NCBI GenBank assembly: GCA_964482435.1
Contig: CAYZXL010000010.1
Span: forward strand, 36,946 to 100,945
DNA length: 64,000 nucleotides
From: an uncultured Verrucomicrobiota bacterium
GTDB taxonomy: Bacteria; Auribacterota; JABMQX01
Reading direction: 5' to 3'
Positions 6,183-64,000 of this stretch are shown piece after piece. Numbering within the stretch: the first letter of the stretch is position 1; every line of letters begins with the position of its first letter. The translations under genes were made by a program, and so were the position numbers. The notes beneath the pieces were generated by a model. That model saw nothing but the letters and a program-made list of their open reading frames with translations, did not search any database and had not been told where the DNA came from.

Positions 6183-6212
6183 CTTGCTGTGCCTCCCAGG
6201 GTTCTTTCAAGT

Positions 6213-8048: not shown

Positions 8049-8380
8049 TAGATTTCAGCTCCCACAGCTTTAATTGTCGCTCGGCGGATTCTTTCCGCCG
8101 CGAGTCCGGTGCCGGGCTGTCTCTCCGGCAAAAGGATGACCGCCGGGAGAGGCTTGAGGTAGTAAGGCTCCAGGAGACTCCTCATTTCTCCGGCGAGGGT
8201 CTCCGATACGAAGATTGCCGCGTATCCGGCCGCGACGATTTTATCCCAAGCCTTCCTCGCCTGAGCGGCGTCCCTGACGCCGAAGGCATCAAAACCCATT
8301 GCCCGGAAAGCCAGTGCGGCACCCGGCGACCCGAGGAAGGCTACCGGAGAGGTTTTCGTTGTTTGCTTCTCATCAGGCAT
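8048..8380 (-). CDS. atpF: V/A-type ATPase subunit F
   Basis: The 110-aa protein lies between subunits C and A. Confidence 0.8.
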
Positions 8381-9997: not shown

Positions 9998-9999
9998 TT

Positions 10000-10464
<465 letters not shown>

Positions 10465-10475
10465 TCACCTCCTGT

Positions 10476-38551: not shown

Positions 38552-41500
38552 ATGCCCGAGGAGCAACAAAAAGGACGGCAGAAACGCGCAGCTCAGAGGG
38601 AGGCATGGGGTATGGCGGCCCCAAGGTTTTCCAAAGGCGAGGCAGTTCGGTTCGGATGGAAGACGGCGAAGCGCAATGTGGGGTTTTTTGCGGGCCTCAC
38701 TATCTTAGTCGGGATCACCCACGTTACTCCCTGGCTTATCACGGCTGCGGCCCGACAGGATGCGGGGCTTCTCCCTCGTATTGTCAGCGTCGCTTCATGG
38801 CTACCACAAATCGTGGTGCAGATGGGGGTCATGAGAATCGCCTTAAGATTCTGCGACGGCGCGAGGGGCGCACTTAGCGATTTATTCTCCTGTTTTCCTC
38901 TGTACTTCAGATATGTACTTGGTTCGAATCTATACGCGCTGATATGTTTCGGGGTGCCGTTCTGGGCATATCTACTTAGTCCGATTCTACTCGTGGCGGC
39001 GCTTTTGTTATTTGCCATCCCCGGCATTATCTGGTCAATGAAATACCAGTTCTTTGGGTATTTCATCGTTGACAGGGGAGTCCCTGCCGTGAAAGCACTT
39101 CGCGCAAGCGCGAGGATCACCAGGGGCGCTAAGCGGGAGTTGTTCGAGTTCGCTATATTGCTCGTCCTTATCAACATTCTCGGGGCCCTGTGCCTGGGCA
39201 TCGGTCTCTTTGTGACGGTCCCGCTATCGCTGCTTGCTCATGCCTTCGTGTATCGAAAGTTGCTGGCGGCTACGGAAGGTGTTCGAACAGCAGAGACCCT
39301 TGAGGCCGTTCGACCCCGTGAATCAGTACTAAGAGTGCTCGGCTCGGTGCAGCTAACCGTCACGCTCTCGTTTCTCGTAGCCGTGGCGCTGATGGTTGCA
39401 ACCCTCATCGAGAATCAGGCTCAGGCTGGTCGCAATATTTACCATTCCTGGTGGTTTATTTCGCTGCTCGGGCTTTTCTGTCTCAATCTTCTTCTCTGCA
39501 CGGCAGGGCGATGGTCCTTCAGAGCGAAGAAGATCGGGATAACTGTTGCCCACGCAGGCGTCCTGGTCATGGTCGTCGGAGTGGTCATCGGCGCCATCTG
39601 GGGGCAGCGAGGCTCCGTTCAACTCTACATCGGCCAGGCGGACGATATTTGGTACCTCGAAAATAACAAGAAGATGAAGCTCCCCTTCGTCGTTTATCTC
39701 AAATACTTTAAGGTGCAACGCTATGTTCGTGAAAGGCTTGTGGTTTACGTGGTGGACCGCAACCTCGTCCGCTCTTTCCCGATGGAAGTCGGCAAGAGCT
39801 TCAGGGTTGCCGGGACGCCGTATTCCGTGACGACCCTGCGCTACGAGCCAGACTTCGTTGTTCTCGGCAAAGGGGGTTTCGGGAGCCGCTCCAGCGAGCC
39901 AAAAAATCCAGCAGTCCAGGTTCGCGTCGAGGACGGGTCAGACAACAAGACACTGTGGGTCTTCGCAAAAGCCCCCGGCATGCACCAGGACCCGGATTCC
40001 AACGTCCGCCTCCTTTATCAGCGGGTCGAAGAAAGGATCAAGAATTTCAAATCAAAGGTCCTGCTCCTGGGCGAGAAGGTCGTCCTTGTCGTGGATGACA
40101 GGCCCGTGGAGACGGGGTACTGGGGGCTCAGTCACCCTGTTTTCAGTCCGGATGGCAGGCACGTCGCATACAAGGGTTCGGGTACAGACGGCGCATGGGA
40201 GTGCGTAGTAGTGGACGGACAGCCCGGACCGAGATACGAAGCGCTTGGCCCCAGGCCTCCCGTGTTTCATGGGGACGGTACCCTGGAATATCTGGCCTTC
40301 GGAGACGGGGTGGTCTACCGCGTTAAACACATCCCGCAAGCTAAGAGCCCGCCGGAAAAGAGGTCTCCACCCGTCGGCAAGGAAACTGGCACCGGACGCC
40401 GCAGCATTTTTGAGGAACGTACTACTCCGCCCGTCACCTCCTCGCAAAGAACAGCGCCCCTCGCTAGCAAAACAACCCCTACCCGCCGGTCGAGCCTCTT
40501 CCATGACGAGCCCACTTCCGGCCGCACCGTTGCCGTCGCACAGGCCGCGTACCAGGTCGAGGAGGAGAAGGTCGGGACAATTGACCGCTCGGCATTTGAC
40601 CACGCCAAGTTCAGCGGGGATGGATTGCACATCGCCTACCGGGTGGACAAGGATGGTAGGTGGATGGTCGCATTGGATGGGAAGGCAGGCCCCGACTTCC
40701 AATGTGCCGGACTCTCGGGGGAGTATTTCTGTGAGCGGCTTTTAGCCCTCAGTTCGGACGCAAAGCGGTTGGCGTACGCCGCCGTGGAGGCTGGCAAGAC
40801 ATTCGTGGTTATGGACGGCAGGCCGGGACCCGCGTATGACGACGTTCAGGACGTCACCCTCAGCGCGGATGGAAGGCGTGTCGCATATGTCGCCAAGAGG
40901 GGCAACAAGTCGTTCGTGGTCGTTGATGAGCAAGCCGGCCCAGAGCTCGACGAGATTAGAGACCCGGCCTTCAGTCCCGACGGGGCGCGATTTGCCTACA
41001 AGGGCAGAGTGCTGGGCGAGCAGACATACGTACTCGCCGTGGACGGCAGACCAAGGCCTGAGCTGGGCGCTGTTTCTGATTTTGTCTTCAGCCCCGACGG
41101 AAAACGAATGGCGTATGTGGCCGAGAAAAATTCCAACCGGTTTGTGGTACTCGATGGACAAGGCGGTCCGGAGTTCAGCAACATCGAGGATTTGATGTTT
41201 AGCGCGGACGGCAAGCGCTTCGCGTACGTCGGTGAGCGTGTAAGTAAAGGTGCGAGAGAAACGATCCTGGTTGTGGATGGGACTTTGATACGGGGCGTCG
41301 GCGTTTACCCCCGGCAAACCTTCAGCGCGGATGGTAAGCGCCTGGCCTACGCAGCCCCCAGCGGCGACGGGTGTCGTGTCATGCTGGACGGCAAGCCGGG
41401 CCCTGTGTATTTTGACGTGCTGGACCTCACTTTCAGTCCTGACGGGAGGCGACTCGCGTACTGCGCCAGAGAGATCCTCGCCTCCAAGACGATTGAAGTC

Positions 41501-41737
41501 AACAAGCCCTTGAGATACCAGGGCTTTTCGATGTATCAATCAGCCTACGATGAGCAGCGCGAAATGTTTTCCGTTCTTGGCATAGTCAAAGACCCCGGCC
41601 TCCCTCTCGTCTATATCGGGTTCGCGGTGATTTCGGCAGGAGTCCTCTTCAACTTCTATCTGCGCCCCATCTTGACGGGGAAAGCACGGGGAACAGCGAC
41701 CCAGAAGGCGCACGCCAGCGGAAGAAACACTGACTGA
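38552..41737 (+). CDS. resB: ResB/CcsB-like cytochrome c biogenesis protein with an N-terminal DUF975-like membrane domain and a PD40-type beta-propeller periplasmic domain
   Basis: Residues 1 to about 265 form a four-TM domain with FGWKTAKRNVGFF. Around residues 280 to 330 is a ResB N-motif (IYHSWWFISLLGLFCLNLLLC). Residues from about 530 to 970 carry at least eight FSPDG[KR]R[FLMV]AY repeats, and the ResB C-terminal region reads MYQSAYDEQREMFSVLGIVKDPGLPLVYIGFAVISAGVLFNFYL. Confidence 0.65.
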   Translation: MPEEQQKGRQKRAAQREAWGMAAPRFSKGEAVRFGWKTAKRNVGFFAGLTILVGITHVTPWLITAAARQDAGLLPRIVSVASWLPQIVVQMGVMRIALRFCDGARGALSDLFSCFPLYFRYVLGSNLYALICFGVPFWAYLLSPILLVAALLLFAIPGIIWSMKYQFFGYFIVDRGVPAVKALRASARITRGAKRELFEFAILLVLINILGALCLGIGLFVTVPLSLLAHAFVYRKLLAATEGVRTAETLEAVRPRESVLRVLGSVQLTVTLSFLVAVALMVATLIENQAQAGRNIYHSWWFISLLGLFCLNLLLCTAGRWSFRAKKIGITVAHAGVLVMVVGVVIGAIWGQRGSVQLYIGQADDIWYLENNKKMKLPFVVYLKYFKVQRYVRERLVVYVVDRNLVRSFPMEVGKSFRVAGTPYSVTTLRYEPDFVVLGKGGFGSRSSEPKNPAVQVRVEDGSDNKTLWVFAKAPGMHQDPDSNVRLLYQRVEERIKNFKSKVLLLGEKVVLVVDDRPVETGYWGLSHPVFSPDGRHVAYKGSGTDGAWECVVVDGQPGPRYEALGPRPPVFHGDGTLEYLAFGDGVVYRVKHIPQAKSPPEKRSPPVGKETGTGRRSIFEERTTPPVTSSQRTAPLASKTTPTRRSSLFHDEPTSGRTVAVAQAAYQVEEEKVGTIDRSAFDHAKFSGDGLHIAYRVDKDGRWMVALDGKAGPDFQCAGLSGEYFCERLLALSSDAKRLAYAAVEAGKTFVVMDGRPGPAYDDVQDVTLSADGRRVAYVAKRGNKSFVVVDEQAGPELDEIRDPAFSPDGARFAYKGRVLGEQTYVLAVDGRPRPELGAVSDFVFSPDGKRMAYVAEKNSNRFVVLDGQGGPEFSNIEDLMFSADGKRFAYVGERVSKGARETILVVDGTLIRGVGVYPRQTFSADGKRLAYAAPSGDGCRVMLDGKPGPVYFDVLDLTFSPDGRRLAYCAREILASKTIEVNKPLRYQGFSMYQSAYDEQREMFSVLGIVKDPGLPLVYIGFAVISAGVLFNFYLRPILTGKARGTATQKAHASGRNTD

Positions 41738-41747
41738 AAAGGGAGCC

Positions 41748-42740
41748 ATGTCACCCACAAGATTATTCTTCACCTGTGCCGAAGTAGCCTATTTCTTAGC
41801 GGGTGTGACTTTCGTAATTTACTACCTGAGCCGCAAGAGTGGCTTTCGGGTCGTTGCGATTTCTCTTCTGGTCGTCGGCGCGCTGTCCCAGGCCCTTTTC
41901 GTCGCCTGGCGATGGGGGGAAGCAGGACGCCCCCCGTTCGCCAATACGTTTGAAACGCTCGTGTTCTTCAGCCTGGTCATCGCGGTAGTCTGCATTGTCC
42001 TGGAGCTGCTTTATTCACCGAAGATTGTCGGGGCGGGCGGCGCGCTCCTCGCCCTCTTAGCCGTCGGGTACGCGAACCTGTTTGAGTGGCAAATCGAGCC
42101 CCTTATGCCCGCCCTGCAAAACAACTTCTGGTTGACCCTCCACGTCGTCTTCTGCTTCATCAGCTACGGCTCTTTCGCGGTATCTTTCGTGGCGGCTCTC
42201 ATTTTCCTTGTGATGCACGGCGGCGTCTTGCGAAAGATTTCGGCGTTTCTGGTATCTCTTTGCGTCGTGGGGCTTGTCGGTGGCCTGTTCTACGGGTTGG
42301 CGCTGCTGGGAATGGGTATCGCAGCCGCCGTGGCCGGAGGAGTTGTCGTGGCGGGGTTGATCTCACTCGCCCTGACATCCATTCTGACAAAGAAAGGAGT
42401 CACGGCCGAAGGAAGAACCAGCGTTCTCTCGGACCTGGTATGGAAGATGGTCGCGTTCGGCTTTCCGTTTCTCACTCTCGGAATCATGACTGGCTCGGTC
42501 TGGGCGAGCGTCGCTTGGGGGAGGTACTGGGGATGGGACCCGAAGGAAACGTGGTCGCTGATTACCTGGCTCGTTTACGCATTTTTCCTTCACGTGCGAT
42601 TCTCCGGCGGGCTGTTCGGCCTGAAGGCAAAATCGCTCCCGCAACTCCAGGCGATTCTCTCGGCGATTGGTTTCCTCTTCGTCCTTTTCACCTACTTCGG
42701 GGTCAACTACCTCCTGTCCGGCCTCCACGCCTACACATAA
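41748..42740 (+). CDS. ccsA: cytochrome c-type biogenesis protein CcsA/ResC (heme-handling WWD protein)
   Basis: The protein has the Trp-rich WWD motif WGRYWGWDPKETWSLITW and eight predicted TM helices. Confidence 0.85.
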   Translation: MSPTRLFFTCAEVAYFLAGVTFVIYYLSRKSGFRVVAISLLVVGALSQALFVAWRWGEAGRPPFANTFETLVFFSLVIAVVCIVLELLYSPKIVGAGGALLALLAVGYANLFEWQIEPLMPALQNNFWLTLHVVFCFISYGSFAVSFVAALIFLVMHGGVLRKISAFLVSLCVVGLVGGLFYGLALLGMGIAAAVAGGVVVAGLISLALTSILTKKGVTAEGRTSVLSDLVWKMVAFGFPFLTLGIMTGSVWASVAWGRYWGWDPKETWSLITWLVYAFFLHVRFSGGLFGLKAKSLPQLQAILSAIGFLFVLFTYFGVNYLLSGLHAYT

Positions 42741-52851: not shown

Positions 52852-55575
52852 TCAGTCCTGGCAGACGCGGTAGAAGCGGCATTTGACGGCGGCAGCGGGA
52901 GGGGAGGTTGGATTATTTTTCTCGTCGGGAGAGTCGAGCCATTGGATGATGCTGCCGTCTCCGAGGAAAGCCGGGCCGCAGGGTTTCCAGTCGGTGGTTT
53001 CATTGAGACCGTCGTCGGTGTACTCAATCTGGTAGCGGACACCTTGAATCGTTGGTCCGAAGGCGACGGCGATTGAGGAGGTGCTGACGGTGATGGTGAG
53101 TTGCAGTGGCGGAAACGGCTCCTCCTCGCGGAGCAGAAGCGTGAGGTCATCCCAGGCGGCGTTCGCGGGAGAGCTGAACACGTCGCGGGCGAGCATCCAG
53201 AACCGGACGGATTTTGTGCCAGCAGGGACGCGATTGCTGGAGGACAATTTCATCCACTCGCCGATTACCCCGGAGTAAAGTTGCCGTCGTTCGAGAACGG
53301 TGTTGCTGGCATCGAGAAATTCAATTGCTATCAAAGGGACAACGGACTCCGTCTGGCCTGTTCGGATGACATGGCCTCCCCAATCGGCGACAATCTTTTT
53401 TTGCGGCGAATCAATCGCTTCTGAAAAAGCCGAAACGTCCACGTCCTGATAAGCTCCGAGGAGGTAGGTCTCGTTCACCAGGTTGTTTGTTTCGCGGTCG
53501 AATCTCCCCGAGGTCTGGTCTGCCCAGAAAGCCCACTTCCCCTGGACGCTCCAGCCGTCAGCGACGGCAATGAACAGGTCGTTGTCGAAGGAGTAGCGGT
53601 TGGCGGGGTCGGGTGGGAAAGTAGTGCTGGCGTTGGTCCAGTGGCAGAGGGATTGTTCTTCGGCATCGGAGTTGAGGAGAAGGTTGCGTGTTTGATCGCC
53701 CGCAGCGCCGGCGACGGTTTCGGACGGCAGCCCTTCGAGATCGGCGTCCACTGCTGTTACGTAATACGAACAACTGGTCCCTTCGACCAGGTTGAGGTCG
53801 AGGTAACGTGGTTGTGGCACCCGAGAAGGGGTGATTTTGACGAAGGGTGCATCGCCTACCTTCCTGTAAATCAAATAGCCGAGGACATCGGCTTCGGGAT
53901 TGGGTTCCCAGGCGAGGGCGATTCCTCCGAGGGTCGGCTCGGCGGAAAGACCGAAGACCTTTTTCGGGGGGATGCCGGCAGGGGCGGTGGTCTGGACTTC
54001 GGGCGACGGGTCGCTCTCTACGGGACCATATCCAGGAGCGAAGGAGCGGACCATGTAGGTGTACGTCTTGCCTTCTGCGGTGGATTCGTCAGTCCAAGAG
54101 GTCGCGGCGACGTCGGCGACTTTCTCGAAAGGCTCGGAGCCGGTTCGGCGGTAGATGTTGTAGCCGGCTGGCAAGACTCCTCCGGACGGGGGATCCCAGG
54201 AGAGCGCGATGCTTTGCTCGCCGGGAGAAACGGAAGCTGAGAGATTCGACGGCGGGTCCGGCTTGGGGACGAAATTCCATTGATATACGACAACCTCCCC
54301 GGACTTCAGAGAGATGTAGAAGCGGTTGCGGTAGCCCTTGATTGACTGAATTTGCTCTCCGTCTCCGATGCTCACGCTAAAGAGCACCTGCGGTTCGCTC
54401 GTCTTATCGGCGAGGTCGAGCACGAGAAGCTCGTCTCCCCCTACCTCGGCAGTGACGAGGTGCGTCTCATCGTGGGTCAAAACGGACGGAAGGAGCGGAT
54501 TGGACGAGATGCGGCTTCCCGGCTCATCGCCGTTCCCGTTCCAGTTGATGGGCGAGCCGAGGAACTCAGGAGCCGCACCGTCGGTGGGCATGTCGGCATT
54601 CCAGAGTAAATAGGAGCCGTCAGCGGCCACGACTTGCCGGATGCGAACAAACCAGTGGTCCGCTGGATGCATGGACGCGACCCGCTCGATCAACCACTTC
54701 CCATCGCCGGTTATGATGTCGGGCGAGACTCGCGAACGCCAGTCGCCCGAGCAGCGCGACCAGTACCGAAACGCCTCAATGGGGTCTCGCGAAAAATCCA
54801 GCATCGCTTCCGCTCCGTCCTGCCCTCCGCACCAGAGCAAATCGCGGCTCGGGTCGTAAACCTGCCCGTAAATCGTCGAGAACCCCCCGATGCCTTCCTT
54901 CACGACGGACATCTTCCGGGTGACGGAGTTGATCGAAAGCAAGTAGATTCCCTCGCCGAAAAAGACTTTGTGGCCGCCAGAGGGGTCATCGGCGTGCCCG
55001 CCGGTTCTCATGGCAGCGGCGATCATTGAGCCGCCCTTGACGAAAATGGGAGGGGATGTGGTCAAGGGATTCTCAAATTGAGCACCCGGAAATTGAAGAT
55101 TCGGGGGATAGGCAGAGTCGAGCAATTGGAATTGGTCACCGCTGACGTCAATCAGGAATATCTTTGTTCCGCAGCCGCCTCCGACGACAACTCTCTCAAA
55201 ACACGGGTCGAAAGAGATTCCGAAGGCGCCATCCTCGCCGTAAGGCATCCCTTCAAATTCCTGCTGGGCGAGGGAGCGGATTTGGGAGGGGTCTGTGACG
55301 TCGAGGATGTCGAGGCAGGCTGCCCCGCCAGGGGAGGACTCGCTCACAACGTAGAGGCGAGTGCCGTCGGCGTTGAGGGCGAGATTGTACGCACCTCCGG
55401 GCCCGGGGTCAAACTCGCCGCAGAAATCGAAACGCTCGACATTCAATCCTCCCGACGGAGTGTCAGATATGCCGGAGCTGGTGCGGGAGCGCGATTCTCC
55501 GGCAACGCGCCAAGCGCACGGGAACACGAGGAGACAACAAAGACACACAGCAAAACTGGATAGCCGTGGACGCAT
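52852..55575 (-). CDS. large secreted protein with a beta-propeller-like N-terminal region, two fibronectin type III domains and a C-terminal domain of unknown function
   Basis: The start at 55575 is followed by signal peptide MRPRLSSFAVCLCCLLVFPCAWRVAG. The two FN3 units are ...PPSNLSASVSPGEQSIALSWDPP...YTYMV... and ...PPKKVFGLSAEPTLGGIALAWEP...YYVTAVD... Confidence 0.5.
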   Translation of the reverse strand: MRPRLSSFAVCLCCLLVFPCAWRVAGESRSRTSSGISDTPSGGLNVERFDFCGEFDPGPGGAYNLALNADGTRLYVVSESSPGGAACLDILDVTDPSQIRSLAQQEFEGMPYGEDGAFGISFDPCFERVVVGGGCGTKIFLIDVSGDQFQLLDSAYPPNLQFPGAQFENPLTTSPPIFVKGGSMIAAAMRTGGHADDPSGGHKVFFGEGIYLLSINSVTRKMSVVKEGIGGFSTIYGQVYDPSRDLLWCGGQDGAEAMLDFSRDPIEAFRYWSRCSGDWRSRVSPDIITGDGKWLIERVASMHPADHWFVRIRQVVAADGSYLLWNADMPTDGAAPEFLGSPINWNGNGDEPGSRISSNPLLPSVLTHDETHLVTAEVGGDELLVLDLADKTSEPQVLFSVSIGDGEQIQSIKGYRNRFYISLKSGEVVVYQWNFVPKPDPPSNLSASVSPGEQSIALSWDPPSGGVLPAGYNIYRRTGSEPFEKVADVAATSWTDESTAEGKTYTYMVRSFAPGYGPVESDPSPEVQTTAPAGIPPKKVFGLSAEPTLGGIALAWEPNPEADVLGYLIYRKVGDAPFVKITPSRVPQPRYLDLNLVEGTSCSYYVTAVDADLEGLPSETVAGAAGDQTRNLLLNSDAEEQSLCHWTNASTTFPPDPANRYSFDNDLFIAVADGWSVQGKWAFWADQTSGRFDRETNNLVNETYLLGAYQDVDVSAFSEAIDSPQKKIVADWGGHVIRTGQTESVVPLIAIEFLDASNTVLERRQLYSGVIGEWMKLSSSNRVPAGTKSVRFWMLARDVFSSPANAAWDDLTLLLREEEPFPPLQLTITVSTSSIAVAFGPTIQGVRYQIEYTDDGLNETTDWKPCGPAFLGDGSIIQWLDSPDEKNNPTSPPAAAVKCRFYRVCQD

Positions 55576-55973
55576 GACACCCCCCCGGTGAGACTTCCAA
55601 GCCGCGACATTTCTCGAGTTATCGTATAGCAAATCGGAAAAAGCAAGTCAACAAACCCCGAAAGTTTTCAGGTAGTGCGTTAGTCCTCCGCGGCTATGGT
55701 CGTGTCGCCCGCGAGGAACAAAGCCTCTACCTCCGTAGTGCCTGTCCAATGCCGCTCGTCAAATCACGACAAGGCGATAATTCACCCCGGGCGCGCCCCC
55801 GAAATGCAGTCACGGCCCTTCAGCGTGAGTCATTGGTTCACGAAGAACCGACATCGGGGCGTACAGACGCTCATTGCCCTCACGGCCGCCACGCAATCCA
55901 GACAAAGCGCCGTTGGCACCTTATGAACCGAATTGCCGACGGGAAGGCTCAGCCCTGTCGGAGTCGCGCCTCC

Positions 55974-57296
55974 TCACAACGGCCGTATCTGGATGTTGCG
56001 GTAGATGGCTTTTGCCTTTATACCTTCCGCTTGGCCGCCGCCGTGAACCTGGACGGCGATGCCACCTTTTTCGGGGATGCGAACCTCCTTGTCCTCGTAA
56101 TCAATCATGTGGACGCCGTTCATAAAGACGGTGATTTTGGGCGGCTGGCCGGAAATCTTGATGCGGAAAATGTTCCAGTCGTCCTTCTTCCACGCGGCAG
56201 GATATTGCTCTGACCGCGCTCCGAAGCCGCCAATCCCCTCGCCGTAGATTCCGCCGACGTTGCCCCCTTCGTGATAATCCACCATGACCTGATAGGCTTT
56301 CCCGGTCTCTGTCGAGCGAAGGAATATTCCGCTGTCAATTCCCCACTCCGGTTTCGCCTCGATGACTAACTCGAAATCACCATACTCCTTGTCGGTGATG
56401 AGAATGCCGCCCTGACGAGGCGGATTCTGCTGGCCGACGATGGTACCGTTCTCGACCACCCATTTCCCGCCAGTGCCGTGTCCTGTGGTGCGGCTGACAT
56501 GCCAACCGTTGAGGGTTTTTCCGTCGAAAATCGGGGTGAAGCCCGCAACGTAATCGGGAACGGGCTTGCCCGCGGCCCAGAGCGTTGCACGGATGAGGAA
56601 AGTCTTGAAGATGTCCTGCTGGCAGGCTTTGGGGTCGTGCCCAAATCCCATGTAGAAGACTCGTCCCTTCCCAGACGATTTCGTCCAGGCGATGGGGAGG
56701 TCCTTCCCCTCGTGCGCGGCGGTCGCGAGGATGTGAATCTCAGGGTCGTCCTGCTGGAGGATGTACTGCTCGTCCGTGATGTTGAAGTCAATCAGCCCTC
56801 TCGTTAGAGGGTTTTCCTTGTCCACAACCTTCACGGCGAATTCCCGGTAAGCCGGGTGCGTGAGGAAATGCCCGCCGACGAACTTCCGATATTCTTCGTC
56901 CTCGCGGAACGAATCGCCGGCCGAATGGAAGCCAACGTAGCCCTTGCCGCTGGCGACGAAATCGAAAAGCCCTTTCTTCTGTTCAGGAGTAATCGTTCCG
57001 ACGGTGTAGTAAAAGACAATCACGTCGTAGGGGTCGAGCTTGGGGGAGATGAGAGCGTTGAGGTCCTCCTCGATTTTTGTAACCTCGAACTGCCCGAACT
57101 CCTTCAGCGTCTTCTCGACCTCATTCCCGATCCCCTTGTAGTCGTGGATGGTCCCACCGGCGAAGACGAGGACTTTCGTCTTCGAACTCGGCGCTTGCGC
57201 AGCGGTTGGCGTCAAAAAGTCCACACAGAAAGCCACAGTCGTTACGGTCAGCAAAAGTGCTCCCAAACAAGCGCACGTGAGAAAACGGTTCTTCAT
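55974..57296 (-). CDS. secreted ThuA-like domain fused to a DUF1080 (3-keto-disaccharide hydrolase-like) domain
   Basis: The N-terminal ThuA half has KVLVFAGGTIHDY, DPYDVIVFYY and GKGYVGFHSA. The C-terminal half has the DUF1080 motifs FDGKTLNGWH, YGDFELVIE and IAVQVHGG. Confidence 0.7.
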   Translation of the reverse strand: MKNRFLTCACLGALLLTVTTVAFCVDFLTPTAAQAPSSKTKVLVFAGGTIHDYKGIGNEVEKTLKEFGQFEVTKIEEDLNALISPKLDPYDVIVFYYTVGTITPEQKKGLFDFVASGKGYVGFHSAGDSFREDEEYRKFVGGHFLTHPAYREFAVKVVDKENPLTRGLIDFNITDEQYILQQDDPEIHILATAAHEGKDLPIAWTKSSGKGRVFYMGFGHDPKACQQDIFKTFLIRATLWAAGKPVPDYVAGFTPIFDGKTLNGWHVSRTTGHGTGGKWVVENGTIVGQQNPPRQGGILITDKEYGDFELVIEAKPEWGIDSGIFLRSTETGKAYQVMVDYHEGGNVGGIYGEGIGGFGARSEQYPAAWKKDDWNIFRIKISGQPPKITVFMNGVHMIDYEDKEVRIPEKGGIAVQVHGGGQAEGIKAKAIYRNIQIRPL

Positions 57297-57458: not shown

Positions 57459-58424
57459 TCATGCCTTTTGCTCGGCGATAACCTTGTTGAGGTGCTTGAG
57501 ACTCCTCTCAGCCTGCTCGACCGTCCCGCACTCGACGGAAAGGACGCCGTTAAAGCCCGCTTTCTTCAGAATCTTGACGATGCGCGTCCAGTCAATGACC
57601 CCGTCGCCGCAGGCGCAGCCGACGGCGGTCCCGGTCACCTTCCCTCTCTCGTCCTTGCTCTGCTGTAGCTCGATGTCCTTAGCATGCATGTGGAATGTGC
57701 GGCCGGCAATTGCCTCCAGCATCTCGTAAGGGTCGCTCACTCCGCCGAGGTAGGCGTTCCCGGAATCGAAATTGAACCCGACGTTGGGGGATGGCACGAG
57801 GTTGGCGATTTTGATTATCTTATCGGTGTAAACGCTGAATTTCTGATGCGGCTCAATCCCGATTTTGACATTGTGTCGCTCGGCAACCGGAACGATGCAC
57901 TTCAGGGTGTAGTGCATAATCTTGAAGGCTGTGTCCTCATCCATCCATTCGGGAATCATCCCCTCGTCGGTGTTGCAGACGGGCGCGCCAAGTTCCGCCG
58001 CGAAGCGAATCGCCTGCTTGATATACTCTACGGAGATTTCCGGTCTTGCTAAAGGACTGTGGCAGGACAAGCCGCTCGCCTGAATGCGATGTTTCTGGAG
58101 AATGTCTCGAATCTCAAGGGGGTCTTCGCTCATCGAGATGGTGTGGTAATAGCCCGCCTCGCTCATAAGCTCGCGGCCCCAGTGCACCATCGGCTCGCAG
58201 AACTTGTATCCGATCTCGGCGGCCTTTGCGACTCCCCACTTGAAAGGCTTCTCAGCCCTTCGTATGAACTCCATATTGATGCCCGGTTTCATGCCCATGG
58301 CAACCCCTCCTTTCTCAGAATCCTCTGCGTTCGCGGTCTCGGTACGGGCGGCGAGAAGCGCCGCCGCGCCGATCAAAGAACTGTCTTTCAGGAATTCTCT
58401 TCTGGTGATGTCCTTTTGTGCCAT
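57459..58424 (-). CDS. TAT-exported sugar phosphate isomerase/epimerase (xylose isomerase-like TIM barrel) family protein
   Basis: The start at 58424 has a GAGGAGG RBS and a twin-arginine signal MAQKDITRREFLKDSSLIGAAALLAA. A TIM-barrel metal-binding His/Asp/Glu pattern follows (EPH, HAKD). Confidence 0.6.
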   Translation of the reverse strand: MAQKDITRREFLKDSSLIGAAALLAARTETANAEDSEKGGVAMGMKPGINMEFIRRAEKPFKWGVAKAAEIGYKFCEPMVHWGRELMSEAGYYHTISMSEDPLEIRDILQKHRIQASGLSCHSPLARPEISVEYIKQAIRFAAELGAPVCNTDEGMIPEWMDEDTAFKIMHYTLKCIVPVAERHNVKIGIEPHQKFSVYTDKIIKIANLVPSPNVGFNFDSGNAYLGGVSDPYEMLEAIAGRTFHMHAKDIELQQSKDERGKVTGTAVGCACGDGVIDWTRIVKILKKAGFNGVLSVECGTVEQAERSLKHLNKVIAEQKA

Positions 58425-58863
58425 ACCTTGCCTCCTCTTCTCCAGGGCGGTCGTTGTCCTGGAGAATTGCAGTTTGCGCTGGCGTGCCAGGGGGGCCTCG
58501 TGCGCCAACCCCACAGCCGCTCCGCAGGGAGCTTCTCCCGAATAGCTCGGAGCAGCGACAATAGAATCAATACCCTTCGACGAACCCATTGTCAAATGTT
58601 TTGAACCGCGCAGAGAACCCGTCCGCTGCCGCCAAGCAGATTTTCCCACCCTGCCGAGTCGCCCTTGAGGACAAACCTCGTCCGGCACATCATGGTGGTT
58701 GCCTCGGCAGAGGGGCTCTGTTAGTATTGGGAGCGTGGCGGGAGTCCTCTTTTCCAATTTGTCCGACGCAGACAAGGGTTCGCCTCATGGCCGTCGGCTG
58801 TCGCAGATATTTTGAGCGGGCATTGCGTCTGCGCCAAAAATCAAAAGGAAAGGAGAGTTCGCT

Positions 58864-59598
58864 GTGTTTAGCTTCATAGTGCGGTGTTTTCGTTGGCCTT
58901 TTTTCGTGGCCTGGGTCGCGCTGGTCCCGATGATGACGGAGTTGACATGTATAGGGGCAGAGGTCAAAGCCGAGAACAGAACCGCAGTTGAGCATGAACA
59001 GAAGCGCGGCGCCTGGGTGAAGACGAGCACCCTGGGCACAAAGAAATACGCTCCGAGCAAGAAGGAATCCGAGTTCTTTGACCGGCTGGCCTCGGATGAA
59101 AATGTCACAGGCGGTATTTTCGGAGACTATTCAATTACCGGGAAGGTCGGGAAGTACATTGGATGGTATGGAATCGTCCGACGGATCAAAGAGTCAAAGG
59201 AGAAGGGCACGACGGAGCTCCTTGTCGAAATGAAGTATTTCGACGGACTGACCGACCTGCACATCATGGCGGTGTCGTTCAACGGGGCGGGCGACTTCGA
59301 GGCGATTCTCTTGGGGACGGGGCACGACATCAAGCCCCTGAGCTTCGTCAAGGTTTACGGGCAAGTGGAAAAAGAAGTGGAGTCGGTGCCTTATGTGTCA
59401 GCGTGTTATGTCCGTGAATGGGATTGGGGGACGTTCACGTTCCTGATGGCGTATGGCGAGCAAAAGGGGAACACTGCGTGGCAAAAACTGAACAAGGTTC
59501 CCCTGGATGACATATACGACGCATGGCCCAACGGGGCGTATTATGAGAAGCGGCTCGGCGAGCGGCCGAAAGCGCCGCCCCCGGAGCCCTCGAAATAA
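58864..59598 (+). CDS. hypothetical exported protein
   Basis: The 244-aa protein has a hydrophobic N-terminus and no recognisable motif. It lies between the TIM-barrel gene and the first TAT-AKR. Confidence 0.4.
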   Translation: MFSFIVRCFRWPFFVAWVALVPMMTELTCIGAEVKAENRTAVEHEQKRGAWVKTSTLGTKKYAPSKKESEFFDRLASDENVTGGIFGDYSITGKVGKYIGWYGIVRRIKESKEKGTTELLVEMKYFDGLTDLHIMAVSFNGAGDFEAILLGTGHDIKPLSFVKVYGQVEKEVESVPYVSACYVREWDWGTFTFLMAYGEQKGNTAWQKLNKVPLDDIYDAWPNGAYYEKRLGERPKAPPPEPSK

Positions 59599-59658
59599 AC
59601 GGATGATGCGCCTCCTCCGCAGGAGGCGCGAGGCAGTGGCCAGTACCGACAAGGGAGG

Positions 59659-60804
59659 ATGAGCATGACGAAGGACACAGTGAGCAGAAGGCAATTCCTG
59701 AAGGACAGTTCGATGATCGGAGCGGCGATGGTTCTTGCGGCAGCCGGCGCTAAGCCGAGCGACGCGAAGGAACCGAAAGTGGACACGTCGAAAATCGTCA
59801 ACTACAACCCGAAGATGGGATACCGGCGCCTCGGAAAAACGAATTTGATGCTTTCGGAAGTGAGCCTCGGCGGGCACTGGAAAAATCGCGGCGGCGGACG
59901 ATACTGGGACAGGTTCGACCAGGATGAGTGCCCGGAGGACGTCGCAAGAAACCGGTCTGACATCGTCAGCAAGTGCATCGAGTGCGGCATCAACTATCTC
60001 GACATCACAACACGCGCGGAGTGCATCGCTTACGGGATGGCCCTGAGAGGGCGAAGAGACAAAATGATTGTCGGGGCGGACGACCATGTCCTGGGCCCGC
60101 GAAATCCTGCCAACCGCACGGTTGAGAAGCTTATTCTCGACGTCGAGGAATGCCTGAAAGCGTTCAAGACGGACTATTTTGACATCTGGCGAGTACAGGC
60201 GCAGATGAATCCCCCTCTTAACACTGACGCGGAAGTCGAGAACATGGTCGAAGCCTTCGAGCAACTCCACAAGCAGGGGAAAGCGAAGTGGTTTGGCGTT
60301 TCGTCCCACACGCGCTCATGGCATCAGCACATCATCGAAAAATATCCGCAAATCTCGATGATTATTTTCCCGTACACCGCCCAGTCAAAGGCCATTGACG
60401 GCAAGGAAACGATTGTCGAGCAGGGCGCCGACGAAGCCGACCCGGCGGTCAGGAGCATCTTCGAGGCGGTGAAGAAGCACGACGTCGGGGTCTGCACGAT
60501 CAAGCCGTTTGCGGGCGGCTCAGTCTTCAGCCCGCAGAAGTTCCCGGCTCCGGAGCAAGGGTCGGAGGAAGAGCACAAGCTAGCGCGATTGACTTTGCAG
60601 TACATCACCGCCAACGACGCAATCACCGCGACGCTGCCCGGCATGACGACGATGCGCGAAGTCGAGAACAACGTTCGGGCATCCTACGAGCGCGGCAAGG
60701 GCGTTTCCTGGGAGGATGTTCAGTGGCTCAAGCGAAGGACGGATGCGGCGTGGGCGAACCTTCCCGAGGAGTACGCATGGCTGCGCGAGTGGGAGTGGGT
60801 CTGA
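59659..60804 (+). CDS. TAT-exported (periplasmic) aldo/keto reductase family protein
   Basis: The twin-arginine signal is VSRRQFLKDSSMIGAAMVLAAAGA. The AKR core is paralogous to the 62015-63106 gene, with shared motifs LGKT.LM.S.V.LGGHWK and F.GFSSH.R. Confidence 0.7.
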   Translation: MSMTKDTVSRRQFLKDSSMIGAAMVLAAAGAKPSDAKEPKVDTSKIVNYNPKMGYRRLGKTNLMLSEVSLGGHWKNRGGGRYWDRFDQDECPEDVARNRSDIVSKCIECGINYLDITTRAECIAYGMALRGRRDKMIVGADDHVLGPRNPANRTVEKLILDVEECLKAFKTDYFDIWRVQAQMNPPLNTDAEVENMVEAFEQLHKQGKAKWFGVSSHTRSWHQHIIEKYPQISMIIFPYTAQSKAIDGKETIVEQGADEADPAVRSIFEAVKKHDVGVCTIKPFAGGSVFSPQKFPAPEQGSEEEHKLARLTLQYITANDAITATLPGMTTMREVENNVRASYERGKGVSWEDVQWLKRRTDAAWANLPEEYAWLREWEWV

Positions 60805-60832
60805 GGCGCTCTCCGAACGGGAATGACGCGAA

Positions 60833-61888
60833 ATGAAATGCGTGCGCCTGACTCGGGTCCCAGTTCCAGCAGCGGCGATCGTGCTCGCGGCGGCGTTCCT
60901 CGTGGCTGGGAGCGAAGATGACCAGAGGAGAAAGGAGGGCGAAGACGCGGTCCTGAAAAGCAATTCCGCGTGCATGGTGTGCCACATAGATTTTGCGGAT
61001 GAAGAACTGACCGTCCAGCATCGCAAGGCGCGGGTGACGTGCGCCGCGTGCCACGGGCCGTGCCTCGAGCACATGGACGACGAGATGGCTGCGACGAGGC
61101 CGGACCGGCTCTTCGGCCGTGCGGAAGTCAACAAGATGTGCGGCGAATGCCACGGCGAGCACAAAAACAAAGACGCAGTGGACGCGTTTCTGAAGGAATG
61201 GTACGGCAGGCGACGACCCAACGGCCAGCTCATCACGAAAGACGCTGTCTGCACCGATTGCCATGGCAGGCACGTCCGGCTTCTCGCGCCCATGCCGCAG
61301 GCTAAGCCGGAGGCTGAGAACTGGAGGCAGCTTTTCAACGGCAAAGACCTCACCGGCTGGAAGCCTGTCGGCGACGCAAAGTGGACGGTTGAGAACGGCG
61401 TTTTGGTCGGTCAGCAGAACAACGGCCAGCACGGCGACATTCTCACGGAGGAAAGCTACGACGATTTCGAGCTTGTGGTGACGTTCAAGGTTCGCCGGCC
61501 TGCCAACAGCGGCATTTGGTTTCGCGCGCTCGACAAGCTTCCCGGTTATCAGATGGACATAGTCAGTCCCGGCAACTCGTTTCACGAAAATGCCACCGGA
61601 AGTCTTCTGTCCTGGGGAGAAGTAGGCAAAGTGTCCGACGCAGCGGCTGATTGCCTGAGCAGGGTCACCGACGACAGCATCCTCAACCGCGACGGATGGA
61701 ACACCGCTGACATCATCGCCGTCGGCGACCACATCAAGGTCACCCTGAACGCGGCCGTAGCAGCCGATTTGCATGACGCCAGGCACCGCAGGGGCAAAAT
61801 TGGCTTCCAGGTTCATCCCGGAGAACGGTTCAAAGACATGAAAATCATGGTCAGGGAGGCGAAGGTTCGGACGCTGGGCGGCTCGTGA
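60833..61888 (+). CDS. tetraheme cytochrome c domain fused to a DUF1080 (3-keto-disaccharide hydrolase-like) domain, exported
   Basis: The signal peptide is followed by four CxxCH motifs (CMVCH, CAACH, CGECH, CTDCH) within about 120 aa. DUF1080 motifs follow: FNGKDLTGWK, YDDFELVVTF, NSGIWFR and IGFQVH. Confidence 0.75.
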   Translation: MKCVRLTRVPVPAAAIVLAAAFLVAGSEDDQRRKEGEDAVLKSNSACMVCHIDFADEELTVQHRKARVTCAACHGPCLEHMDDEMAATRPDRLFGRAEVNKMCGECHGEHKNKDAVDAFLKEWYGRRRPNGQLITKDAVCTDCHGRHVRLLAPMPQAKPEAENWRQLFNGKDLTGWKPVGDAKWTVENGVLVGQQNNGQHGDILTEESYDDFELVVTFKVRRPANSGIWFRALDKLPGYQMDIVSPGNSFHENATGSLLSWGEVGKVSDAAADCLSRVTDDSILNRDGWNTADIIAVGDHIKVTLNAAVAADLHDARHRRGKIGFQVHPGERFKDMKIMVREAKVRTLGGS

Positions 61889-62014
61889 GGCGCGTGAGAA
61901 ACGCGCCGCTGGAGGACTCTTCGAGTCATGGGCAGTCAGATATTGTCGCCAGATGTTCATACATGGTAAGCTATAGCTCAAGTGGTTTGACAATCAAACA
62001 GGGAGGTTTTCGGT

Positions 62015-63106
62015 ATGGCTGAAAAGAAAATAACAAGACGAGAGTTTGTTCGAGACGGCGCGATGGCGGCGGTCGGCATTGCGGCGGGCTTAGCAACCGG
62101 AGCACCCGCCCTCGGCGCCAAAGAGACGAAGATTCTCAACTACAACGAGAACATGGAGTATCGCGCTCTCGGAAAGACCGGGCTGATGGCTTCCGCGGTC
62201 TGCCTCGGCGGACACTGGAAGCGCATCAACCTCATGGCGCCCAGCGCTTTCAAGGGCGATGACTGGCTTGGTGCGAATCTCAACGACTCTGACTTCGTGA
62301 AGAATCGCGGCGAGGTTGTCAGCCGCTGCATCGAGCTTGGCATGAACTATATTGACTCGTGCACCATCGAGGAGGTGAAGACTTACAGCAGAGCCTTGAA
62401 AGGCCGTCGCGAGAAGATGTACCTCGGCTGCTCGTGGTATCAAAAGGAGATGCGAAACGATAATTTCCGCACGAAAGAGGCGCTTCTCAAGACGCTGGAC
62501 GAGGGCTTGAAGGATGCCGGTCTCGATTACGTGGACCTCTGGCGAATCACCATGCACGAGCAGAGCGGCAATCACACAAAGGCCGAGGTCGAGCAAATGA
62601 TGAAGGCGCTCGAGGCGGCCAAGAAGCAGGGAAAGGCGCGCTTCACCGGCTTCTCCTCGCACGATCGCCCGCACATCAAATGGATGATTGAGACCTACCC
62701 GGAGATCGTTGACGTGGTTGTGACGCCCTACACCGCCAACACCAAAGAGCTCCCCAAAGATAGCCTCTTCGAGACGGTGAGGAAGCACAAGGTCGGCGTA
62801 TTCGGAATCAAGCCCTTTGCCAGCAATTCGCTCTTCAAGGGCGATAGCTCGCCGACGAGCTCGACGGCGGAAGAAGATGACAAGCGGGCCCGGTGGGCCA
62901 TTCGCTGCATCCTCTCGAATGATGCAGTCACCGCGCCCATTCCGGGGTTGATCAACATTCACCAGGTGGACAACGTCACAAAAGCCGTCGGAGAGCGACG
63001 CCAGCTTGACGCCGCAGAACTTAGGCAGTTCGACGAGGCCGTCGCCGAGATGTGGGCGAAGCTGCCGGAAGAATATCAGTGGCTGCACGACTGGAAGTAC
63101 GTGTAA
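62015..63106 (+). CDS. TAT-exported (periplasmic) aldo/keto reductase family protein
   Basis: The twin-arginine signal is ITRREFVRDGAMAAVGIAAGLATGAPALGA. The protein is a paralog of the 59659-60804 gene. Confidence 0.7.
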   Translation: MAEKKITRREFVRDGAMAAVGIAAGLATGAPALGAKETKILNYNENMEYRALGKTGLMASAVCLGGHWKRINLMAPSAFKGDDWLGANLNDSDFVKNRGEVVSRCIELGMNYIDSCTIEEVKTYSRALKGRREKMYLGCSWYQKEMRNDNFRTKEALLKTLDEGLKDAGLDYVDLWRITMHEQSGNHTKAEVEQMMKALEAAKKQGKARFTGFSSHDRPHIKWMIETYPEIVDVVVTPYTANTKELPKDSLFETVRKHKVGVFGIKPFASNSLFKGDSSPTSSTAEEDDKRARWAIRCILSNDAVTAPIPGLINIHQVDNVTKAVGERRQLDAAELRQFDEAVAEMWAKLPEEYQWLHDWKYV

Positions 63107-63222
63107 GCGAGGATTGAGGTTGGCGCATAGCGCTTCACGCGGGTGGCGCGGGCAGATGTCCCGCCCATCCGCGTGATTCTATCTGATTCAAGACGGTCGC
63201 GGTTGTCTGCAAAGGAAATCGC

Positions 63223-63723
63223 ATGAGGAATGGCGCGCTCGCAGTACTCTCGGCATCGGTGGTCCTGTCGCTCTTCTCATGCGTCCACAATCCGTCTCTC
63301 GACGAGAAACGTGCAGGGGCGCTCGCCACTCCCGGCGAAAAGCATGATGCTCCAGCACCGCCCAGGCAAACTACCGCCGACAATAGTTGGTGCCATGTGT
63401 GCCACATCAATTACGCCGAGGAGGAGCTTGCCGTAACACATGCGCGCGCCAACGTCGGCTGCGCGACATGCCACGGTGAGTCTTATGCCCACCGAGGCGA
63501 CGAGGCAAACGTTACCCCACCCGACATCATGTACCCCAAGGAGAAGATTAACCCATCGTGCTTAAAGTGCCACGCTGCCGAGAAGCTCAGCGACGTTCAC
63601 AAACCGTTCCTCGCGGGCACCGCCGAGGAAAAGTATTGCACCGATTGCCACGGCGATCACCGCCTCGCCTATCGCACGCAGCGCTGGGACAAGGCGACCG
63701 GCAAGCGCCTGAAGCAAGAATAG
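63223..63723 (+). CDS. tetraheme cytochrome c lipoprotein
   Basis: The lipobox is LFSCV. Four CxxCH motifs (CHVCH, CATCH, CLKCH, CTDCH) are spaced as in the cytochrome domain of the 60833 protein. Confidence 0.75.
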   Translation: MRNGALAVLSASVVLSLFSCVHNPSLDEKRAGALATPGEKHDAPAPPRQTTADNSWCHVCHINYAEEELAVTHARANVGCATCHGESYAHRGDEANVTPPDIMYPKEKINPSCLKCHAAEKLSDVHKPFLAGTAEEKYCTDCHGDHRLAYRTQRWDKATGKRLKQE

Positions 63724-64000
63724 GCCGGCTCGTCCCGGATGAGACAAGCACCTCGGCCATTGCTCGAACGCCGTGCTCGTTCAACCGATTTTGGGATGCC
63801 TTTCTGCGCAAGAAAGTGAGCCGCACAGTTCGCCGAGAGCGCAGCGGAGCCCCATCATCGTCCTGTTCATTCTCTGCGTCTTCTGCGTTCTCTGCGGTGA
63901 GTTCCCCATGCGACTGAGGGGTTTCACAGAGGACATTTTGTGAATCGCACCGGAGCCGCCTACGTGATATGATTATTGAGTTCTCAGATTCGTTCAGGCG

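Follow-up and report, generated by a model that had tools for sequence, protein, structure and literature searches.

Why should a cytochrome with four hemes be covalently joined to a domain for which no redox chemistry is known? This question is raised by a gene in a 64,000-nucleotide stretch of DNA from an uncultured Verrucomicrobiota bacterium (GenBank assembly GCA_964482435.1, contig CAYZXL010000010.1, positions 36,946 to 100,945 of the forward strand), which we refer to in its full length as the window. An earlier inspection of the letters without database searches, the sequence-only reading, had noted a fusion of a tetraheme cytochrome c domain to a complete DUF1080 domain at 60833-61888. 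It had proposed that electrons are fed into or removed from a keto-sugar-processing step, or else that the cytochrome anchors the DUF1080 enzyme to a redox partner such as a Gfo/Idh/MocA dehydrogenase or the aldo/keto reductases (AKRs). In this study we find that the family to which the cytochrome belongs is paired with an exported and strongly remodelled AKR-fold protein, and we tentatively propose that the cytochrome wires this protein to an electron-transfer chain and holds the DUF1080 domain beside it.

The open reading frame (ORF) at 60833-61888 on the forward strand encodes 351 amino acids (aa). The fusion is intact, with neither a frameshift nor a stop codon between its two parts, and its layout is as follows:

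60833..60910, forward strand: Sec-type signal peptide of the fusion, aa 1-26, recognised by inspection only
60962..61276, forward strand: tetraheme cytochrome c domain with four CxxCH motifs, aa 44-148
61277..61321, forward strand: interdomain linker rich in Pro, Ala and Glu, aa 149-163, of low confidence in the AlphaFold2 (AF2) model
61322..61846, forward strand: jelly-roll domain of the DUF1080, 3-keto-disaccharide-hydrolase-like type (PF06439), aa 164-338

The signal peptide starts with a basic n-region (MKCVRLTR), which is followed by the hydrophobic core VPVPAAAIVLAAAFLVAG and then by SEDDQ. A signal or a lipoprotein-like segment was seen by inspection at the N-terminus of every member of the fusion and of its family, several of them with a lipobox; signal peptides were assessed throughout by inspection and regular expression. 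The C-terminal half is a member of Pfam PF06439, as a search with hidden Markov models (HMMs) showed (E 2.8e-33, 116 bits against a cutoff of 26.8, profile positions 2-186 of 187). The heme motifs start at aa 47, 70, 103 and 140 (nucleotides (nt) 60971-60985, 61040-61054, 61139-61153 and 61250-61264). Their number had been read correctly before, but the span given for them, up to 61280, was slightly generous, as the last motif ends at 61264. By chance about 0.002 occurrences of four CxxCH motifs would be expected in 351 aa, estimated from typical Cys and His frequencies.

For the cytochrome half the profile searches gave a mixed answer. The Pfam cytochrome models each stay below their cutoffs in the fusion (Cytochrom_c3_2 reaches 23.7 against 25), but the motifs and the distal His residues are conserved across the family: an alignment of the heme region of 21 sequences shows no variation in the four CxxCH motifs, in N13, E26 and several Asp/Gly positions or in the distal H62, H79 and H146, and hardly any in H109. 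This is the pattern that four bis-His hemes, the presumed ligation, would give. Among the fusion homologues listed, most have exactly four CxxCH motifs; a few combine three with a CxxxCH or CxxxxCH variant, and one truncated entry has two. The fold of the heme domain was assessed from weak profile matches alone, namely to NrfB, MtrA and octaheme nitrite reductase; Foldseek results for the whole-protein model were dominated by the jelly roll. We also considered a quinol dehydrogenase of the NapC/NirT/CymA type and rejected it: PF03264 (Cytochrom_NNT) is absent from the Pfam matches at E up to 0.01, and many relatives carry lipoprotein boxes or signal-peptidase sites, not an uncleaved transmembrane anchor.

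How common is such a fusion? A search of a 5.8-billion-protein collection gave 608 matches, and in the best 120 of these, whose architectures we read, about 65 clusters (90% identity) combine a tetraheme with a DUF1080 domain. The survey suggested by the sequence-only reading thus shows a recurrent architecture. The clusters come from Planctomycetota, Armatimonadota and one metagenome-assembled genome (MAG) of Acidobacteriota, and three architectures occur: tetraheme followed by DUF1080 as in the window (about 330-360 aa), DUF1080 followed by tetraheme (about 315-334 aa), and tetraheme followed by two DUF1080 domains (about 515-545 aa). In a rough neighbour-joining tree of the heme domains, computed without support values, the forms with a C-terminal cytochrome fall into two separate clades, one nested in the N-terminal clade and the other, from Armatimonadota, beside stand-alone cytochromes. 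This placement suggests that the domain order changed more than once.

The heme domain itself is more widespread. A scan of GTDB with a heme-domain profile, using one genome per species, confirmed at least 398 relatives. The best 80 of these all come from MAGs, mainly of Pirellulales, Planctomycetales, Phycisphaerae/Sedimentisphaerales and Armatimonadota, besides some Verrucomicrobiota and Omnitrophota, one Acidobacteriota and one Anaerolineales; among the matches listed, the best is 56% identical, and the species of the window is apparently missing from the representatives scanned. Against 1.84 billion representatives at 50% identity, the heme domain found 583 matches at E up to 1e-3 and 259 at E up to 1e-10. 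Since only 17 of the best 150 representatives (about 11%; median length 187 aa) carry DUF1080, the fusion recurs but makes up a minority of a cytochrome family whose members mostly stand alone.

Which partner, then, does the cytochrome keep? Four distant loci, which cover the long form and both domain orders, have a single conserved neighbour in common, an AKR gene directly upstream on the same strand. We extended this comparison to the 63 cytochrome genes of the family that had 1200 nt or more of sequence upstream, calling ORFs in the fetched loci and assigning them with family HMMs. A specific AKR subfamily lies immediately upstream in 55 of the 63, the distances ranging from small overlaps up to 476 nt. 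All 26 DUF1080-fused cytochromes have the AKR directly upstream, as do 30 of the 37 stand-alone ones; the 26 include one locus (L015) in which an ORF-start artefact hid the AKR from the scripted test and which is left out of the 55. Partner AKRs match the family HMM at E 1e-130 to 1e-169, compared with 3e-18 for the ordinary cytoplasmic AKR of the window (49765-50748). Starting instead from the AKR, we looked at three homologues selected only because they lie on long contigs: behind two of them comes a cytochrome-DUF1080 gene, and the third is an orphan. Apart from jelly-roll proteins, no conserved third gene was found among the module neighbours. The conserved core is an AKR plus a tetraheme cytochrome, a point missed by the sequence-only reading, which was right that the fusion is real but did not see that DUF1080 joins only a small part of the family.

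In the window this unit occurs twice in tandem, at 59659-61888 (AKR1 and the fusion) and at 62015-63723 (AKR2 and a stand-alone cytochrome):

59659..60804, forward strand: AKR1, a divergent AKR-fold protein exported by twin-arginine translocation (Tat), type A (PF00248; the public call starts at 59665 and has 379 aa)
62015..63106, forward strand: AKR2, a second AKR-fold paralogue with a Tat signal, type C, motif TRREFVR (PF00248, E 2.2e-21)
63223..63723, forward strand: stand-alone lipoprotein tetraheme cytochrome c, 166 aa, four CxxCH motifs, lipobox LFSC

AKR1 and AKR2 are only 40% identical, and are therefore old paralogues and not the product of a recent duplication. AKR2 matches the family HMM at E 3e-163. 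A stand-alone homologue of the heme domain had been reported 1.3 kb downstream of the fusion; it is indeed a paralogue of the N-terminal domain (34% identical, E 5e-23) and starts 1335 nt past the fusion stop. Above the Pfam cutoffs it matches Cytochrome_C7 and Paired_CXXCH_1. The array continues beyond the window: in locus L002 a fragment of a third paralogue (5463-5732; family HMM E 8e-33) lies about 40 nt past the window end, downstream of the solo cytochrome. Elsewhere, seven-heme cytochromes (335-360 aa, seven CxxCH motifs) follow an AKR of this kind (L045, 1178-2185; L057, 5350-6432), and judging from these versions the heme wire may be extended in some lineages.

The AKR partner is unusual in several respects. 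A twin-arginine motif, S/T-R-R-x-F-[LVIM], was detected by regular expression in 62 of the 63 family AKRs, and in AKR1 it reads SRRQFLK (TIGR01409, 26.1 bits); we call these proteins Tat-AKRs. AKR1 matches PF00248 at E 5.9e-14 (52 bits against a cutoff of 24), and its AF2 model, with a predicted local distance difference test (pLDDT) score of 83 and a predicted template modelling score (pTM) of 0.83, is clearly that of an (α/β)8 AKR barrel. Foldseek places it with AKR11C1, AKR14A1 and L-galactose dehydrogenase at E about 1e-15. With canonical AKRs (1ynp, 4aub, 7smi) it shares the fold (target-normalised template modelling score 0.60-0.76), the Asp after strand 2 and a C-terminal PG...N motif. 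In contrast to them it bears a Tat signal, lacks the catalytic Tyr, Lys and His, has its nicotinamide contacts replaced and holds a new set of His, Glu, Arg and Lys residues in the pocket. This comparison was made by profile alignments to 1ynp, 7smi and 7ezi and by MAFFT against the canonical AKR of the window. From the Asp-Tyr-Lys-His tetrad the Asp alone is kept; the Tyr loop is deleted, the Lys is Asp or a gap, and the His is Gln or Thr. Around the nicotinamide, the Asn of the Ser-Asn pair has become Ser or Thr, Gln a hydrophobic residue and the stacking Tyr an Ile. Invariant or nearly so are H71, D113, E119, Y123, R130/R131, D139 and R146, as well as D173, W175, R176, K206, H215, R217 and K280, and the conserved pocket residues all lie, by the AF2 secondary structure, at the C-terminal ends of the barrel strands, which is the active-site face of a TIM barrel. 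The Tat-AKR is presumably a functional, conserved enzyme or binding protein, and not a canonical AKR dependent on nicotinamide adenine dinucleotide or its phosphate (NAD(P)). The earlier reading, which rightly named AKRs as possible partners, had missed this departure. From the Tat export of the protein one may suspect that a cofactor is inserted before it leaves the cytoplasm, and the multiheme partner suggests a redox role. At E below 1e-10 the Tat-AKR has 4070 homologues, annotated only as 'aldo/keto reductase'.

Clustering of the module neighbours separates three types of module. In type A an AKR of 380-400 aa accompanies a tetraheme domain fused to DUF1080. In type B, found at about 18 loci, the AKR has 332-345 aa, the tetraheme cytochrome stands alone, and a secreted Laminin_G_3 protein of ~250 aa (PF13385, E about 1e-18) is encoded with them. 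Type C is an AKR with a solo tetraheme cytochrome and no jelly roll, as in the second unit of the window. The AKRs themselves differ accordingly: a loop insertion after strand 1, GGHW[KR]xRxxxR[YF]W, which reads GGHWKNRGGGRYW in AKR1, is present in 24 of the 26 AKRs that go with a DUF1080-fused cytochrome and in 0 of the 31 others. The presence of DUF1080 hence tracks the AKR subtype. The insertion occurs with either domain order, the Armatimonadota clade included. The conserved synteny with one Tat-AKR family strongly supports the idea that the cytochrome anchors DUF1080 to a redox partner of the AKR kind, and the co-varying loop supports it as well. No such support was found for Gfo/Idh/MocA as this partner, a family that is not a conserved neighbour of the module and whose only copy in the window is 41 kb away. 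In one type B module, from an Anaerolineales MAG (L041, 2711-6339), a GH29 α-L-fucosidase is encoded between the AKR and the tetraheme cytochrome. We also asked whether DUF1080 and the operon-encoded Laminin_G_3 proteins are homologous and rejected this (hhalign probability 0.1); they share a fold class at most.

DUF1080 is not the only domain that has been attached to this cytochrome. The tetraheme domain is also fused to ThuA (P0334, L089), to a xylose-isomerase-like TIM barrel (P0355, L090; 39.6 bits against a cutoff of 31.1) and to a GH123 catalytic domain (P0315, L091). On these three short contigs a Tat-AKR precedes only the TIM-barrel fusion, which it does directly (E 1e-151). In a Verrucomicrobiota MAG (L054, 3549-5525) a single ORF of 658 aa behind a Tat-AKR unites a tetraheme domain, Laminin_G_3 (E 1e-12) and a xylose-isomerase-like TIM barrel, the last being sub-threshold at 26.6 bits against 31.1.

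What could the DUF1080 domain contribute? Characterised enzymes of the BT2157/AL2 kind are 3-keto-α-glucoside 1,2-lyases and 2-hydroxy-3-keto-glucal hydratases; they are redox-neutral, have no redox cofactor, probably depend on Ca2+, and work together with a Gfo/Idh/MocA oxidoreductase and a xylose-isomerase-like TIM-barrel lyase (bioRxiv 10.1101/2024.03.25.586180). The earlier statement that DUF1080 has no known redox requirement thus holds. In the AF2 model of the fusion the DUF1080 domain has pLDDT values mostly of 85-97, with one block down to 63 at aa 261-270, and Foldseek finds as its best match BT3469 (4jqt, E 2e-14), followed by 3u1x and 3hbk (about 3e-11), the 3-keto-glycoside eliminase/hydratases 8rr2, 9fbe, 8tda and 8v31 (about 1e-10; for 8v31, 8rr2 and 8tda about 2-4e-10) and the lectin-like CBM66, ERGIC-53, VIP36 and Emp46/47 (about 1e-8 to 1e-9). 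N225, Q240, D242, Q326 and H328 are invariant in the fusion family. Mapped onto BT2 (chain numbering plus 25, checked on Q273 and H275), N225, Q326 and H328 correspond to N134, Q273 and H275; the E103 position is a conserved Gln, Q195; E164/Q166 probably correspond to Q240/D242 by a transitive alignment via 3hbk; and Y190 and K245 have no alignable position. For aa 149-160 of the linker pLDDT is below 50, and the model of the whole fusion has a pTM of 0.61, so that the linker appears as a flexible or disordered tether. The model also contains no hemes, and we therefore rejected it as a guide to the heme-to-cleft geometry.

The hypothesis that we consider most likely as to how these parts act together is a periplasmic, cytochrome-linked, sugar-oxidising complex, in which the cytochrome wires the AKR-fold enzyme and tethers a redox-neutral keto-sugar eliminase or hydratase. 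We hold it with a confidence that stops somewhat short of even. According to this hypothesis the AKR-fold TIM barrel would be exported folded via Tat and the bis-His tetraheme cytochrome c via Sec. Redox catalysis on a sugar or glycoside would fall to the AKR-fold protein, and the four hemes would serve as a one-electron wire from its pocket to an electron-transfer chain in the periplasm or membrane. Beside this oxidoreductase a flexible tether would keep the redox-neutral DUF1080, either as an eliminase/hydratase for the labile keto-sugar product or as a sugar-binding module, a role which Laminin_G_3, a TIM-barrel lyase or ThuA might take in the sister systems. The covalent fusion would then serve co-localisation or channelling and not the delivery of electrons into the DUF1080 site. 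We prefer tethering to electron delivery because of the disordered linker, the occurrence of both domain orders, the separate jelly-roll genes and the variety of non-redox fusion partners. The data show the architecture, the export signals, the recurrence, the synteny, the remodelled yet conserved pocket of the AKR and the range of fusion partners. We infer that a complex forms, which way the electrons flow, what the substrate is and which cofactor the AKR uses, the latter probably not being canonically bound NAD(P).

Several points weigh against this proposal. The support for every component is computational, and the synteny loci were sampled via the cytochrome, with related species that are not independent observations. 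Some family cytochromes stand alone in unrelated contexts, and one AKR homologue has no cytochrome. We infer the redox competence of the Tat-AKR only from the cytochrome that accompanies it and from its export by Tat. We found neither a Cys cluster nor a known cofactor motif in it, and, as direct transfer from hydride to heme would be unusual, some other cofactor must be postulated. About 89% of the family representatives lack DUF1080, so that this domain is an accessory. It aligns only partly with BT2157-type enzymes: from eight active-site residues of BT2, three are identical, about three are substituted and two cannot be aligned. Moreover, its nearest structure, BT3469 (4jqt), has no assigned function, and the AF2 model of the fusion is unreliable on interdomain geometry at a pTM of 0.61.

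Might the jelly rolls simply bind glycans? In this explanation, which we regard as unlikely yet as one to be taken seriously, DUF1080 and Laminin_G_3 are non-catalytic carbohydrate-binding modules that dock the AKR-cytochrome pair on a polysaccharide or an envelope glycan, and no keto-sugar chemistry takes place in them. Laminin_G_3 is usually a binding module, and it replaces DUF1080 in about 18 operons; the fold is ConA-like, the lectins CBM66, ERGIC-53, VIP36 and Emp46/47 are among the Foldseek matches, several catalytic or metal-binding residues of BT2 are substituted, and the nearest solved structure is the BT3469 protein without assigned activity. However, the fusion family keeps the equivalents of BT2 N134, Q273 and H275 and of the polar pair at 164/166 without exception, and the same cytochrome is fused to genuine enzymes (xylose-isomerase-like TIM barrel, GH123, ThuA). 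As DUF1080 and Laminin_G_3 show no detectable homology, their roles also need not match.

It is less probable still that the sugar context is incidental. The pair could serve redox reactions or detoxification in the periplasm in general, for instance of aldehydes, quinones or metals, or else the AKR could be non-redox and the cytochrome serve some other partner, with the sugar-enzyme fusions reflecting the crowding of paralogous families in genomes of the Planctomycetes-Verrucomicrobia-Chlamydiae (PVC) type. The absence of NAD(P) motifs from the AKR would agree with this, as would the lack of conservation of genes beyond the AKR-cytochrome pair and the high abundance of DUF1080, ThuA and xylose-isomerase-like TIM genes in such genomes. 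Against it, all five different fusion partners are carbohydrate-processing and three belong to the set of the 3-keto-glycoside pathway; the AKR loop co-varies with DUF1080 in both domain orders (24/26 as opposed to 0/31), and the neighbouring genes are enriched in families typical of carbohydrate-active enzymes (CAZymes).

We consider it improbable, more so than the incidental context, that the hemes exchange electrons with a reaction in the DUF1080 cleft, this subfamily being itself a redox enzyme. The covalent linkage of both domains is conserved across phyla, and as the active site of this DUF1080 is not the same as in the hydratases characterised so far, new chemistry is conceivable. But the linker of 12-15 residues is disordered, both domain orders and forms with two DUF1080 domains are hard to fit to a fixed heme-to-cleft geometry, the AKR partner is kept by the cytochrome with or without DUF1080, and no solved structure or assay of a DUF1080 protein has shown a redox cofactor (bioRxiv 10.1101/2024.03.25.586180). 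Electrons fed into the keto-sugar step, as first suggested, are hence disfavoured also by the other fusions with non-redox sugar enzymes. An artefact (frameshift, mis-assembly or chance ORF) has a negligible chance: frameshift and chimeric assembly are excluded by a 351-aa protein called identically on five contigs from different, independent sequencing runs and by an architecture that recurs in the ~65 clusters, with homologues of the same architecture at 84% to 32% identity and an AF2 model that is confident for both domains.

Coming back to the proposed sugar-oxidising complex, how does it compare with known systems? Periplasmic cytochrome-linked sugar oxidation coupled to DUF1080 is already known. 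LacABC and ThuAB are periplasmic, cytochrome-c-dependent 3-ketoglycoside dehydrogenases (PMC8121099, PMC9007349), and the genes of LacABC adjoin DUF1080 genes in several bacteria, as with Caulobacter CCNA_01705 (PMC9007349, PMC8121099). LacABC resembles the module described here as a periplasmic sugar dehydrogenase that depends on cytochrome c, is linked to a secreted DUF1080 protein and has a Tat-exported component. It differs in its GMC-type dehydrogenase, which uses flavin adenine dinucleotide (FAD) and has its own cytochrome subunit, and in its separate DUF1080, whereas our module has an AKR-fold partner, a bis-His tetraheme cytochrome of another family and a covalently fused DUF1080. The GMC family was absent from the 25 commonest neighbour families, and the genes adjoining the cytochrome encode AKR-fold proteins. 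With the BT2156-2160/AL1-3 systems the module shares the DUF1080 fold, including the equivalents of N134, Q273 and H275, a Tat xylose-isomerase-like TIM barrel adjacent in the window, and the sequence of an oxidoreductase followed by redox-neutral keto-sugar processing. Those systems, in contrast, are redox-neutral with tightly bound NAD, have no cytochrome and use a Gfo/Idh/MocA oxidoreductase (bioRxiv 10.1101/2024.03.25.586180). The DUF1080 of the fusion is also shorter than theirs, of a roughly 190-aa type nearest BT3469, and several of its active-site residues are substituted.

Fusions of enzymes to cytochromes are familiar from other settings. The flavocytochrome c3 of Shewanella is a tetraheme domain fused to a fumarate reductase, and quinohemoproteins are likewise enzyme-cytochrome fusions. 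The likeness to flavocytochrome c3 lies in the N-terminal bis-His tetraheme wire fused to another periplasmic domain. In flavocytochrome c3 and the quinohemoproteins, however, the fused domain carries the redox cofactor, FAD or pyrroloquinoline quinone, whereas no redox activity is known for the domains fused here (DUF1080, ThuA, TIM lyase, GH123), and what we presume to be the redox enzyme is encoded as a separate protein. Monoheme 'PVC-type' cytochromes c are fused to DUF1080 or ThuA in large proteins of Planctomycetes and Verrucomicrobia. These come from the same phyla and likewise join a c-type cytochrome to DUF1080 or ThuA, but their cytochrome domains are monoheme and unrelated to ours, and we know of no report of an obligate AKR partner for them. 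In the literature searched we found no description of the tetraheme-DUF1080 architecture, of the Tat-AKR/cytochrome protein pair, of the pairing with a Tat-exported AKR lacking the tetrad, or of a combinatorial tethering of enzymes to a cytochrome.

A bolder version of our hypothesis may be formulated, although we think it doubtful. The Tat-AKR would form a new class of periplasmic oxidoreductases in which NAD(P) has been replaced by a metal or organic cofactor in the His/Glu/Arg/Lys pocket, exchanging electrons directly with the tetraheme cytochrome. Around the two as redox core a modular 'oxidative glycosidase' complex would be built, with DUF1080, xylose-isomerase-like TIM, ThuA and Laminin_G_3 modules plugged onto the cytochrome. 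If this were true, glycan breakdown would be coupled to respiration in Planctomycetota, Armatimonadota and Verrucomicrobiota. The module as such, if confirmed, would connect polysaccharide degradation with electron-transport chains in abundant uncultured lineages of sediments and freshwater. It would also give a role to the large AKR family with its 4070 homologues and a new cofactor chemistry to the AKR fold. Oxidative (3-keto) cleavage of glycosides has only recently been recognised as a broad alternative to classical glycosidases. The authors who described the DUF1080 enzymes named cytochromes as possible in vivo re-oxidants of the partner oxidoreductase (bioRxiv 10.1101/2024.03.25.586180), and the module makes this question of periplasmic re-oxidation concrete. 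If the AKR were non-redox, what is left would be a recurrent but ordinary pattern of domain tethering among paralogous PVC families.

The wider gene neighbourhood is rich in related functions. Neighbours of the module across the sampled loci are mostly carbohydrate-active, among them GT4, sulfatase, glucuronyl esterase, heparinase, GH123 and BNR proteins. In the window we noted the following features:

38552..42740, forward strand: ResB-like and CcsA-like genes of system II cytochrome c maturation (PF05140 ResB, PF01578 Cytochrom_C_asm)
55974..57296, reverse strand: ThuA–DUF1080 fusion, 440 aa (PF06283, E 5e-44; PF06439, E 8e-33)
57459..58424, reverse strand: Tat-signal xylose-isomerase-like TIM barrel, public call of 321 aa (PF01261, E 5e-33; TIGR01409)

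The TIM barrel, with the Tat motif TRREFLK, is oriented divergently from the AKR-cytochrome module and belongs to the same family as the 3-keto-glycoside beta-eliminases; its mechanical ORF, which reaches 58775 (438 aa), over-extends the public call. Together with the ThuA–DUF1080 gene it lies divergently upstream of the module, and both are conserved in a 68%-identical relative (L005). The ThuA–DUF1080 protein is another covalent combination of families from the 3-ketoglycoside pathway. The ResB-like and CcsA-like genes provide the genome with the capacity for c-type cytochromes. The ResB-like protein (38552-41737, forward strand) is unusually long at 1061 aa, with PD40/WD40-like β-propeller repeats and a weak Peptidase_S9_N match, and the CcsA gene (41748-42740) follows directly after it.

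Upstream of AKR1, at a distance of 60 nt, a 244-aa ORF with a hydrophobic N-terminus (58864-59598, forward strand) has no Pfam or NCBIfam match; its occurrence is limited to contigs of the same species, and L005 lacks it. A scan for promoters and terminators at 58700-64000 gave nothing informative on the forward strand. The window alone contains four DUF1080 domains. Two of them belong to a protein at 17303-18568 (forward strand), which lies beside a convergent Gfo/Idh/MocA oxidoreductase gene (18716-20023, reverse strand), 41 kb from the fusion, and the two look like a classical pair of the 3-keto-glycoside type. Between the ThuA and ThuA–DUF1080 genes a protein of about 907-926 aa is encoded on the reverse strand (52852-55632), with a signal-like N-terminus, fibronectin-III-like repeats and faint Pfam matches. 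Finally, genes for V/A-type ATPase subunits and Rnf proteins (RnfC-like, RnfD) at 4788-12425 (reverse strand) and 20277-22810 (forward strand) hint at an anaerobic or facultative energy metabolism of the source organism.

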